Source of the DNA: Escherichia coli
GTDB taxonomy: Bacteria > Pseudomonadota > Gammaproteobacteria > Enterobacterales > Enterobacteriaceae
Direction: 5' to 3' (one strand)
Length of the DNA stretch: 64,000 nt
NCBI RefSeq assembly: GCF_003334305.1
Contig: NZ_QOWS01000001.1
Under the pieces are notes generated by a model. That model was given only the letters and a program-made list of their open reading frames with translations, did not search any database and was not told where the DNA came from. Positions 1,122 to 57,631 of this stretch are shown here, piece by piece. Positions within the stretch are counted from its first letter, which is position 1, and every line of letters starts with the position of its first letter. A program made the translations under genes and the position numbers.

Positions 1122-1208
1122 AAAAAATAAGCCCGTGTAAGGGAGATTACACAGGCTAAGGAGGTGGTTCCTGGTACAGCTAGCATTTTATGGGTTATGT
1201 TTTTCAGC
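1122..1208 (-). ncRNA. cyaR: CyaR (RyeE) Hfq-dependent sRNA
   Basis: Reverse complement reads GCTGAAAAACATAACCCATAAAATGCTAGCTGTACCAGGAACCACCTCCTTAGCC...CACGGGCTTATTTTTT, matching the CyaR sequence including its terminator hairpin and U-tail. Confidence 0.8.
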
Positions 1209-1292
1209 GAAACGGATGATAACCTTAATAAATGCAGCTGTATGTGATCGGTTTCTAAGAATTTTCCATCCGGGAAAAATAATCGAAATTAA

Positions 1293-31153: not shown

Positions 31154-31192
31154 CAGTGTATTGGTAGCTAAAAAGCCAGGGGCGGTAGCGTG
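31154..31192 (+). promoter_or_regulatory. JUMPstart element with ops site (GGCGGTAGCGTG) in the wza 5' leader; RfaH-dependent antitermination signal
   Basis: CAGTGTATTGGTAGCTAAAAAGCCAGGGGCGGTAGCGTG seen at 31154-31192, about 180 bp upstream of wza. Confidence 0.75.
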
Positions 31193-31370: not shown

Positions 31371-32510
31371 ATGATGAAATCCAAAATGAAATTGATGCCA
31401 TTATTGGTGTCAGTAACCTTGATAAGCGGTTGCACAGTACTTCCGGGCAGCAATATGTCGACGATGGGCAAAGACGTCATCAAACAGCAGGACGCTGATT
31501 TCGATCTCGACAAAATGGTGAATGTTTATCCGCTGACCCCGCGCCTGATTGACCAATTACGCCCACGCCCGAATGTAGCGCGCCCCAATATGACGCTGGA
31601 AAGCGAGATCGCGAATTACCAGTATCGCGTCGGGCCGGGGGACGTTCTTAATGTCACCGTCTGGGATCACCCGGAACTCACCACGCCAGCCGGTCAGTAC
31701 CGCAGCTCCAGCGACACCGGCAACTGGGTACAGCCTGACGGCACTATGTTTTACCCGTATATCGGCAAGGTTCACGTAGTTGGGAAAACGCTCGCTGAAA
31801 TCCGCAGTGATATTACCGGGCGCTTAGCGACGTACATCGCTGACCCGCAGGTGGACGTTAATATCGCCGCCTTCCGCTCACAAAAGGCCTATATCTCCGG
31901 ACAGGTGAATAAATCCGGCCAACAGGCGATCACCAACGTGCCACTGACCATTCTCGACGCCATCAACGCCGCAGGTGGCCTGACCGACACCGCTGACTGG
32001 CGCAACGTGGTGTTAACACACAATGGTCGTGAAGAACGCATTTCTTTGCAGGCGCTGATGCAAAATGGCGACCTCAATCAGAACCGACTGCTTTACCCCG
32101 GCGATATTCTCTATGTGCCGCGTAATGATGATCTGAAAGTATTTGTGATGGGTGAAGTGAAGAAACAGAGCACCCTGAAAATGGACTTTAGCGGCATGAC
32201 CCTGACTGAAGCTCTGGGCAATGCCGAAGGTATCGACATGACCACCTCCAACGCCAGCGGCATCTTTGTCATTCGTCCGCTGAAAGGCGAGGGTGGGCGT
32301 AACGGCAAGATTGCCAATATCTACCAGCTGGATATGTCCGATGCGACGTCGCTGGTGATGGCGACAGAATTCCGCCTGCAACCTTATGACGTGGTGTATG
32401 TCACCACCGCCCCGGTTTCCCGCTGGAACCGTCTGATCAATCAGTTGCTGCCAACTATTAGCGGTGTCCGTTACATGACGGATACAGCCAGCGACATTCA
32501 TAACTGGTAA
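31371..32510 (+). CDS. wza: Outer membrane polysaccharide export lipoprotein Wza
   Basis: 379 aa; lipobox LISGC; matches Wza. Confidence 0.95.
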
Positions 32511-45718: not shown

Positions 45719-45807
45719 ATGAATGCCGAACCGCGATGTAAATAACGACAAAAACAAAATTGGCCGCTTCGGTCAGGGCCAACTATTGCCTGAAAAAGGG
45801 TAACGAC

Positions 45808-55584: not shown

Positions 55585-56478
55585 ATGACGAATTTAAAAG
55601 CAGTTATACCGGTAGCAGGTCTTGGGATGCATATGTTGCCTGCCACTAAGGCGATTCCCAAAGAGATGCTACCGATCGTCGACAAGCCAATGATTCAGTA
55701 CATTGTTGACGAGATTGTGGCTGCAGGGATCAAAGAAATCCTCCTGGTAACTCACGCGTCCAAGAACGCGGTCGAAAACCACTTCGACACCTCTTATGAA
55801 TTAGAATCTCTCCTTGAACAGCGCGTGAAGCGTCAACTGCTGGCGGAAGTGCAGTCGATCTGTCCACCGGGAGTGACCATTATGAACGTGCGTCAGGGCG
55901 AACCTTTAGGTTTGGGCCACTCCATTTTGTGTGCGCGACCTGCCATTGGTGACAACCCATTTGTCGTGGTACTGCCAGACGTAGTGATCGACGACGCCAG
56001 CGCCGACCCGCTGCGCTACAACCTAGCTGCCATGATTGCGCGCTTCAATGAAACGGGACGCAGCCAGGTGCTGGCAAAACGTATGCCGGGTGATCTCTCT
56101 GAATACTCCGTCATTCAGACCAAAGAACCGCTGGATCGCGAAGGTAAAGTCAGCCGCATTGTTGAATTCATCGAAAAACCGGATCAGCCACAAACGCTGG
56201 ACTCAGACATCATGGCCGTTGGTCGCTATGTGCTTTCTGCCGATATTTGGCCGGAACTTGAACGCACTCAACCTGGTGCATGGGGGCGTATTCAACTGAC
56301 TGATGCCATTGCTGAACTGGCGAAAAAACAGTCCGTTGATGCAATGCTGATGACTGGTGAAAGCTACGACTGCGGTAAAAAAATGGGCTATATGCAGGCG
56401 TTTGTGAAGTATGGCTTACGCAACCTGAAAGAAGGGGCGAAGTTCCGTAAAGGGATTGAGAAGCTGTTAAGCGAATAA
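55585..56478 (+). CDS. galF: UTP-glucose-1-phosphate uridylyltransferase regulatory paralog GalF
   Basis: 297 aa; matches GalF. Confidence 0.95.
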
Positions 56479-56736
56479 TGAAAATCTGACCGGATGTAAC
56501 GGTTGATAAGAAAATTATAACGGCAGTGAGGGTTCGTGGCGAAAGTAATTTGTTGCGAATATTCCTGCCGTTGTTTTATATAAACAATCAGAGTAACAAC
56601 GAGTTAGCAATAGGATTTTAATCAAAGTTTTCCAGGATTTTCCTTGTTTCCAGAGCTGATTGGTAAGACAATTAGCGTTTGAATTTTTCGGGTTTAGCGC
56701 GAGTGGGTAATGCTCGTCACATCGTAGGCATGCATG

Positions 56737-56775
56737 CAGTGCTCTGGTAGCTGTAAAGCCAGGGGCGGTAGCTTG
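56737..56775 (+). promoter_or_regulatory. JUMPstart element with ops-like site (GGCGGTAGCTTG) ahead of the O-antigen cluster
   Basis: CAGTGCTCTGGTAGCTGTAAAGCCAGGGGCGGTAGCTTG; near-identical to the wza JUMPstart at 31154. Confidence 0.7.
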
Positions 56776-56785
56776 GTAAAAAATC

Positions 56786-57631
56786 ATGATAAATGTAAGA
56801 AAAATAGCAAAATTAATTATTGGCGATAATTTGTATTGGAAGTTGAAGTTTTTTTATGCCACTAAAAAATGGCCTAATATTTATGATCCAACTTTTTTTA
56901 ATGAAAAAGTTCGCTGGCGAATGCTGCACGACCAAAATTATCTTTATGTTAAATGCGCTGATAAGTATGAGGTCAGGAACTATATTGAGAAAAAAATTGG
57001 CAGTGAATATTTAGTTCCGCTTCGTTATATGTTTACTAATAATGATGATATTACTGATAAATGTATTCTGAGTAATAGTGTAGCAAAGTCTAACCATGGT
57101 GCAGGTATGATAGAGTTCATTCCTGAGACGTATTCATTAAGCGAGTTGAAGAATACTTTTGGAAAATGGCTAAATCTTGACTATACCTCCGAGTCCAATG
57201 AAAAACATTATAGTAGGATTCCGAGAAAAATTCTTATTGAAGAGTCTTTGTGTAAGGAGGGAAAACCTCCTGTCGATTATAAATTTCATACATTTAAACA
57301 AGCAGATGGTTCATTTCGTTTTGTTCTTCAGTTGGTAAATGGTCGGTTTCATAATGAATCAAGAGGTTATTATCTGGAGGATCTTAATAAATGCATATGG
57401 TCTCATGGTGAAGGTTTTCATTCTATTCCACAAGAGCATATAAAACCTTTAAAAAAGGCTATGGAATTGTCATCAATTCTATGTGAAGATTTTAATTACG
57501 TACGAGTTGATTGGTATATCTATGATAATAAGCTTTATTTTGGTGAATTAACCTTTACACCTGGTGCTGGAAGTTCATATGAATTTGGTAATGAGCTTGA
57601 AAAATTAATGGCCAAATATTGGCAGTTGTAA
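56786..57631 (+). CDS. TupA-like ATP-grasp family protein (first gene of the O-antigen cluster; function unclear)
   Basis: 281 aa; N-terminal FFNEKVRW...DKYEVRNYI and C-terminal VDWYIYDNKLYFGELTFTPGAGSS patterns typical of the TupA-like ATP-grasp family; low GC. Confidence 0.6.
   Translation: MINVRKIAKLIIGDNLYWKLKFFYATKKWPNIYDPTFFNEKVRWRMLHDQNYLYVKCADKYEVRNYIEKKIGSEYLVPLRYMFTNNDDITDKCILSNSVAKSNHGAGMIEFIPETYSLSELKNTFGKWLNLDYTSESNEKHYSRIPRKILIEESLCKEGKPPVDYKFHTFKQADGSFRFVLQLVNGRFHNESRGYYLEDLNKCIWSHGEGFHSIPQEHIKPLKKAMELSSILCEDFNYVRVDWYIYDNKLYFGELTFTPGAGSSYEFGNELEKLMAKYWQL

Follow-up and report, generated by a model that had tools for sequence, protein, structure and literature searches.

An ordinary JUMPstart/ops leader with a T at position 10, ten nucleotides before the first gene of an Escherichia coli O46/O134 O-antigen cluster

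The window, by which we mean the whole 64,000-nucleotide stretch of DNA that was analysed, is part of an E. coli chromosome and contains the colanic-acid cluster (wza leader at about 31.2 kb), the galF gene (55585-56478) and the beginning of an O-antigen cluster. Our main finding is that the leader in front of the O-antigen genes, which belong to a known cluster, appears to be ordinary and functional-looking: a JUMPstart/ops element of a known kind. In our account, the leader is a standard site of RfaH recruitment that marks the 5' boundary of the O46/O134 operon, the T at position 10 of ops lies at a free position, and ATG 56786 is a true start codon that lacks a Shine-Dalgarno (SD) sequence. 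We put the probability of this account as a whole at about 0.8. Its main value is that of a clean-up: it describes a normal RfaH-loading element, a real variant at a free position and a correct start codon, and it calls for no re-annotation.

The O46/O134 cluster and its leader

Over the 1.2 kb that run from the galF stop codon into the second gene of the cluster, the window matches seven complete RefSeq genomes at 100% identity and a further ten at 96% or more. All 17 genomes carry genes annotated as an ATP-grasp fold amidoligase and then an O46/O134-family flippase. The serogroup-specific genes wzx and wzy lie between galF and gnd and are named as members of the O46/O134 family, a name that does not tell O46 and O134 apart; the two are a known pair of near-identical clusters (PMC4732683). 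The six genes of the cluster, which are followed by gnd, ugd and wzzB, are:

56786..57631 (+), ATP-grasp (TupA-like, PF14305) amidoligase of 281 aa, the first gene (RefSeq name, PF14305)
57633..58934 (+), wzx, O46/O134-family O-antigen flippase
58936..59841 (+), family 2 glycosyltransferase (GT2)
59838..60977 (+), wzy, O46/O134-family O-antigen polymerase
60934..61767 (+), beta-1,6-N-acetylglucosaminyltransferase-type glycosyltransferase
61770..62498 (+), family 2 glycosyltransferase, the last gene before gnd (RefSeq start, mapped; the mechanical ORF runs from 61764)

The RefSeq name of the first product is ATP-grasp fold amidoligase family protein, and PF14305 is precomputed on its cluster of identical proteins (P0001) and on every homologue listed. 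The O46/O134 O-antigens contain D-glucuronoyl-D-allothreonine, according to the citation of Perepelov 2015 in PMC7685785. This component fits the presence of an amidoligase gene, and the putative amidoligase probably makes the glucuronoyl-allothreonine amide. In E. coli SCU-485 (O46/O134; NZ_CP053245.1, 67308-69130), the amidoligase is annotated in two fragments and wzx is frameshifted. The alignment places an extra T in a T-run at codons 22-24 of this amidoligase; SCU-485 may be a rough strain, or its assembly may contain indel errors.

The elements of the leader, together with the JUMPstart used for comparison, are:

56697 (+), approximate transcription start of the O-antigen operon, transferred from CFT073
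56737..56775 (+), 39-nt JUMPstart
56764..56775 (+), ops element GGCGGTAGCTTG, read from the sequence, with T of position 10 at 56773
56774 (+), expected RNA polymerase (RNAP) pause at U11 of ops, placed by register, 12 nt before the A of the start codon
56776..56785 (+), 10-nt A-rich spacer GTAAAAAATC, with an in-frame stop codon (TAA, 56777-56779) and no SD
31154..31192 (+), JUMPstart of the colanic-acid (wza) leader (Rfam RF01707, 57.3 bits)

The JUMPstart in front of the O-antigen genes is a full match to Rfam RF01707 (model positions 1-38, 56.7 bits, E=1e-12, against a gathering score of 35), and the ops 12-mer forms its 3' end. All 39 nt are identical in 17 of 17 O46/O134 genomes, and within ops the only departure from the RF01707 consensus is G to U at position 10. 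The ops of the wza leader, GGCGGTAGCGTG, occupies 31181-31192, and 178 nt separate it from the wza ATG at 31371. The sequence-only reading had described the O-antigen site as ops-like and one base off the wza copy. This description was confirmed and is exact, as the two sites differ solely at position 10 (G vs T). The pattern GGCGGTAGYNTG has two exact occurrences in the window, compared with 0.04 expected from shuffles, and both copies sit in full-length JUMPstart matches (57.3 and 56.7 bits).

The bases that ops requires are known: RfaH reads the loop G4-A7, the C3:G8 pair closes the hairpin, and T11 and G12 drive the pause, which RNAP makes at U11 (PMC5995543). In the crystal structure of the RfaH:ops complex, RfaH touches only G4-A7, and TG at positions 11-12 is said to be common to all validated E. 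coli targets (PMC5995543). In the O-antigen leader the core G1-G8 is intact, as 56764-56771 is exactly GGCGGTAG and includes both the loop and the closing pair. The pause dinucleotide is also intact (TG at 56774-56775), and positions 9-10 are C and T, which is inside the published consensus (Y N, or N N). A different case is E. coli ZH48 (NZ_CM137833.1), where ops reads GGCGGTAGCGTT and position 12, normally the pause G, is a T. Downstream, the annotation begins with an IS1 transposase encoded on the other strand, which points to disruption of the O-antigen cluster.

The ops element lies on the same strand as the operon and within an untranslated 5' leader, with an in-frame stop codon between ops and the ATG and no same-strand ORF over ops. 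A location in an untranslated leader appears to be required; ops-like sites within coding regions of CFT073 did not bind RfaH.

Up to ops, the galF-wzx intergenic region of CFT073 aligns with the window collinearly and has no indels. In CFT073, the transcription unit predicted from RNA-seq starts 67 nt upstream of the start of ops (PMC9765446 Data set S2A). Based on this distance and on the collinearity, we place the transcription start of the O46/O134 operon near 56697, which would give a leader of about 89 nt. A simple sigma-70 consensus scan found no convincing hexamers near this CFT073-derived start. We also considered and rejected a new promoter created by the T variant or by the A-rich spacer (TTGGTA / TAAAAA): no promoter-like site was found at 56700-56900 (+), and the hexamers were poor when inspected by hand. 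Just upstream of the presumed operon start, in the intergenic region between galF and the O-antigen genes, there is a terminator-like hairpin (56655-56676, +) of eight pairs followed by GTTTGAATTT. This hairpin could terminate galF transcription.

Other RNA elements were found elsewhere in the window. Three tandem matches to SIB RNA on the minus strand (15329-15471, 15657-15799 and 15986-16134; Rfam RF00113, 138-150 bits) form the repeated arrangement of sib/ibs type I toxin-antitoxin loci. The small RNA CyaR/RyeE is found at 1125-1210 (-) (Rfam RF00112, 100.7 bits). An algC RNA motif (45754-45803, +; Rfam RF02929, 77.3 bits) lies between wza and galF, probably inside the region of the colanic-acid cluster.

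The T at position 10 of ops

A 51-nt query that ends at ops (56725-56775) was matched at 51 of 51 positions by exactly 17 of 5426 complete E. coli genomes, and these are the same 17 that carry the O46/O134 cluster. Among the matches listed, every other genome had at least one mismatch to the query, and T10 was absent from other E. coli genomes with the same 39 upstream bases. Within the 17 genomes the T is kept in haplotypes with 99.3%, 97.4% and 96.4% identity across the region. The only change nearby, C to T at -2 of the spacer, was seen in two of three aligned sequences. The metagenomic contig L144 has T10 too, again followed by a 10-nt spacer. The GalF of this contig has 88.5% amino acid identity to that of E. 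coli and its cluster DNA is 68.7% identical to the window, so L144 comes from another genus of the Enterobacteriaceae.

Because the 17 genomes and L144 share the T, we regard it as an inherited feature of the cassette and not as an error. The possibility of a sequencing or assembly error in the window, which had been raised from the sequence alone, has nothing in its favour beyond the rarity of the T among E. coli genomes. We give it next to no credence: 17 independent complete genomes, haplotypes that are 96-99% identical and a contig from another genus all carry the same base, and this excludes an error.

In E. coli of other serogroups, the upstream intergenic sequence is the same base for base as far as ops position 9, and the sequences diverge within or just after ops. 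This divergence places T10 on the cassette side of the recombination boundary. The comparison also makes the 3' edge of ops the upstream boundary of serogroup-specific sequence. T10 evidently travelled with the gene cassette, in keeping with the idea that O-antigen clusters recombine at JUMPstart on their upstream side.

Two published ops consensus sequences, RGGCGGTAGYNT (PMC3911127) and GGCGGTAGNNT (PMC6748792), have N at position 10. At the eight ops sites validated by ChIP-seq in CFT073, position 10 is G in six and A in two, namely hlyC (GGCGGTAGCATG) and kpsM (GGCGGTAGCATA), and position 12 is A in two of the eight (PMC9765446 Data set S2A). When ops was mutated in a lux reporter, the strongest defects came from G5A, T6A, G8C and T11G; the RfaH effect fell with every substitution but G2C, and so also with G10C, to a degree that is not stated (PMC5995543). 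No published functional test of a T at this position turned up in a literature search, and searching for the variant sequence itself, GGCGGTAGCT, gave only unrelated primers. The T variant does recur in leader positions elsewhere, before a contractile-injection-system operon of Enterobacter sp. BIGb0383 and before a glycosyltransferase operon of a Pantoea genome, which places T10 within the known range. The Enterobacter locus (NZ_RJKQ01000001.1, 800376-802771) contains two neighbouring, near-identical leaders (L047 and L048), each with a copy of the same 12-mer. These copies precede the tail-tube-like and tail-sheath-like genes of a PVC/Afp-like contractile-injection-system locus, and ops before consecutive genes is unusual.

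In the consensus pause, G is mildly favoured two bases before the end, and this is one reason to consider that T10 weakens the ops pause or the loading of RfaH, leaving a decaying site and an operon that is partly RfaH-dependent or RfaH-independent. Additionally, the validated CFT073 sites all have a purine at position 10 (PMC9765446), and the T10 site may be a weaker one because G10C, like all reporter substitutions other than G2C, lowered the RfaH effect (PMC5995543). However, position 10 is not contacted by RfaH, and the Rfam score is nearly the same as that of the wza element (56.7 vs 57.3 bits). The rest of the 39-nt element is perfectly kept in 17 genomes of differing backgrounds, and ops plus the following GGT is identical in another genus, although decay should bring further changes. 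T10 also recurs before other long operons. We consider decay of the site unlikely. Our preferred reading is that T10 is a fixed, inherited and harmless-looking variant at a consensus-free position that RfaH does not contact, and that it may, at most, modestly tune the strength of the pause. That T10 is kept in one diverged relative is weak evidence of selection, because at about 69% identity a single base is often kept by chance.

Start codon, spacer and the missing Shine-Dalgarno sequence

The sequence-only reading had placed the first ATG about 10 nt after the ops-like site, and the distance is exact: ATG 56786, which opens the 281-aa ORF, directly follows the spacer. An upstream start is excluded because of the in-frame TAA at 56777-56779, which stands at -9. 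RefSeq annotates ATG 56786 as the start in three strains. Additionally, 21 homologues of 33-77% identity align co-linearly from residue 1, and in this alignment the invariant residues P30, F38, K41 and R45 precede the next ATG, codon 46. In distant homologues the gene has an internal position, with a start codon that adjoins or overlaps the gene before it, which fixes the same N-terminal extent independently. ATG 56786 is also the only start codon in common with the diverged relative L144: the in-frame TTG at codon 16 (56831) is CTA in L144 and the TTG at codon 20 (56843) is GTT. Among the first 20 codons, 11 differ between the two sequences, 3 of them synonymously (codons 2, 13 and 16).

It had been suggested that the true start might lie far downstream, behind a normal leader. 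The candidates would be TTG 56831, TTG 56843 and the ATG at codon 46 (56921), and the suggestion draws on the missing SD at ATG 56786 and on the existence of the two in-frame TTG codons. Both TTGs are, however, equally without an SD (anti-SD duplexes of -1.9 and 0 kcal/mol), and both are lost in L144, where the first ATG is kept. Codon 46 falls after the four invariant residues, and the N-termini of the homologues are co-linear from M1, including those of the internal, translationally coupled copies. A downstream start is therefore very improbable. Judged by annotation and alignment, ATG 56786 is the genuine start of the amidoligase.

The earlier remark that this ATG has no obvious SD was borne out. 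No anti-SD duplex at a usable spacing is stronger than -3.0 kcal/mol, compared with a median of -1.9 kcal/mol at random positions of the window. For other starts in the window, the anti-SD scores were -7.9 (galF), -6.8 (wzy), -2.1 (wzx), -1.6 (wza) and 0 kcal/mol (GT2). A hidden SD was considered and rejected; a first duplex of -6.2 kcal/mol drew on ops bases too far upstream (16-22 nt), and the scan restricted by spacing gave a duplex no better than those at random positions. In the predicted fold of the leader, the spacer has a mean unpaired probability of 0.77, and the spacer and first codons are A/U-rich and mostly unpaired.

Starts without an SD are typical of the O46/O134 operon, of wza and of RfaH targets generally, and a missing SD combined with RfaH-aided ribosome loading is the published general model for RfaH operons (PMC7819879). 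The refolded KOW domain of RfaH binds S10, and reporters without an SD are wholly RfaH-dependent; it has been hypothesized that RfaH may recruit a ribosome at the ops pause, after which the ribosome scans to the downstream start (PMC7819879; PMC5995543).

In L144, GGCGGTAGCTTGGT is followed by a 10-nt A-rich spacer, GTTGAAAAAA, and then by ATG. Five of the ten spacer bases differ from those of the window, and an in-frame stop codon (TGA) stands at the same -9 place. The L144 amidoligase is 77% identical to that of the window. The galF-proximal intergenic region of L144 does not align with the window.

The amidoligase is the first gene behind JUMPstart in its nearest relatives (at least 61% identity); in distant relatives it comes after wzx or some other gene, and the stop codon of that gene overlaps its start. 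A plausible history is that an internal, coupled gene that never had a leader or an SD of its own came to be first, against the JUMPstart boundary. In one metagenomic relative (L153, metagenome 3300004634, positions 248-277), a sequence identical to the opening nine bases of the E. coli amidoligase gene, ATGATAAAT, lies 21 nt after ops. This sequence ends at a TAG and is not in frame with the TTG called as the start (267); it may be left over from an older start, be a small upstream ORF or reflect an indel in the contig.

We compared the distance between the end of ops and the first start codon among samples of leaders, for which ORFs were partly called mechanically. In E. coli the gap is 73-75 nt in rfbB-first clusters (12 loci), 37 nt in one flippase-first cluster, 26 nt before O113 wzx and 192-273 nt in clusters of the O8-wzx family. 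These values come from a spread sampling of E. coli genomes that was mostly rfbB-first and covered about six distinct O-antigen leader types of roughly 185 serogroups. In CFT073 the gaps, converted from distances to the start of ops, are 28 (kpsM), 48, 49, 59, 145, 178, 301 and 622 nt (PMC9765446). A collection of species genomes was also scanned for CCAGGGGCGGTAGNNT. It yielded at least 120 stretches, mostly chance matches inside genes of unrelated phyla, and about 40 leaders from Enterobacterales and Aeromonas, with the first ORF called mechanically, were usable. About 35 of the Enterobacterales/Aeromonas leaders among the matches listed have gaps of 20, 20, 21, 23, 26, 32, 33, 38 and 40 nt and onwards to about 500 nt; the gaps of 20-26 nt belong to tssH (clpV) genes of type VI secretion loci, and three apparent spacers of "-3" are artefacts of a GTG inside ops.

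Thus, 10 nt is the shortest gap seen among roughly 60 sampled leaders, and it is the tail of a continuous distribution, not a separate class. The expectation that ops normally lies well upstream is right in part, given the short gaps before kpsM, tssH, O113 wzx and the gene of the flippase-first cluster.

A model for the leader and its comparison with known systems

We propose a model in which transcription would begin in the galF-proximal intergenic region, near 56697. RNAP would pause at U11 of ops (56774) and expose the non-template core as a small hairpin, where RfaH would load and then stay with the polymerase through the six-gene, low-GC, SD-poor operon. Bound RfaH would exclude NusG and Rho and help ribosomes to engage. 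The AUG would be transcribed 12 nt after the pause, and initiation at ATG 56786 would occur through the unstructured A/U-rich region, through delivery of a ribosome tethered by RfaH, or both, but not through an SD. Whatever the spacer, the ribosome gains access to the AUG only after the polymerase has moved on by about 25-30 nt (the footprints of RNAP and the 30S subunit). Because the AUG is inaccessible until then, RfaH loading would necessarily come before initiation, and the short spacer is thus compatible with the standard order of events. Loading of RfaH closely followed by initiation would fit both the geometry of the leader and the missing SD; this belongs to the general model of RfaH operons and is not specific to this locus.

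A stronger proposal is that the 10-nt gap is itself functional and selected, so that the paused polymerase with bound RfaH hands a 30S subunit directly to the AUG and ops replaces the SD. The delay in ribosome access described above applies to any spacer and argues against this proposal. The proposal agrees with the missing SD, with the predicted unpaired state of the spacer and the AUG region, and with a spacer length kept at exactly 10 nt in a relative whose nucleotide sequence has diverged by about 31% and whose spacer has five changed bases. Two further amidoligase-first relatives also have short gaps, and ribosome recruitment by RfaH at the ops pause is a published hypothesis (PMC7819879). 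However, only two independent lineages have a gap of 10 nt. Other relatives manage with 21-40 nt, and in most O-antigen operons the gap is 26-75 nt or more, so RfaH operons do not need a gap of 10 nt. Additionally, the gene is internal and coupled in distant homologues, and a short leader without an SD may be what was left over once the gene was first in the cluster. We therefore find a selected gap unlikely and prefer an ordinary RfaH-recruitment leader that happens to be short. If a selected minimal leader were nevertheless real, it would be a natural system for dissecting protein-mediated recruitment of ribosomes. As the shortest gap sampled, without an SD and kept in a second genus, the leader is a convenient template for studying the proposed recruitment of ribosomes by RfaH at the ops pause.

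Among the closest known systems, L144 resembles the window in having the amidoligase first, the same gene order downstream, T10 in ops, GGT directly after it and a spacer of 10 nt, but differs in the sequence of the spacer and in a diverged upstream half of JUMPstart. Siccibacter colletis (L106) and the metagenomic contig L153 also have a homologous amidoligase first, directly behind JUMPstart; unlike the window, they have ops GGCGGTAGCATA and gaps of 21-40 nt. The rfbB-first clusters of E. coli (K-12 O16, O26, O19 and others) share with the window the site after galF, the 39-nt JUMPstart, the identical upstream intergenic sequence and the same ops core and TG pause, whereas they have G at position 10 and 73-75 nt followed by GTG, where the window has T, 10 nt and ATG.

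Outside these clusters, two systems are similar in having ops close to the start codon. CFT073 kpsM (group 2 capsule region 3), which is bound by RfaH in ChIP-seq, is like the window in having a variant at position 10 and a short gap: its ops starts 40 nt before the gene, leaving 28 nt after ops (PMC9765446 Data set S2A). It is unlike the window in having A at position 10, a changed position 12, a spacer about three times longer and a promoter about 0.8 kb upstream. The tssH (clpV) leaders have gaps of 20-26 nt in four loci from Acerihabitans, Pantoea and a soil MAG (L034, L062, L070 and L115), which share the leader CTTATGGGCATCGGTTAACGGCCAGGGGCGGTAGCGTG, and 48 nt in CFT073, where the tssH site is bound by RfaH in a delta-hns delta-stpA background. 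In contrast to the window, the tssH leaders have a recognisable GGAG/GAGG Shine-Dalgarno sequence and a different upstream half of JUMPstart.
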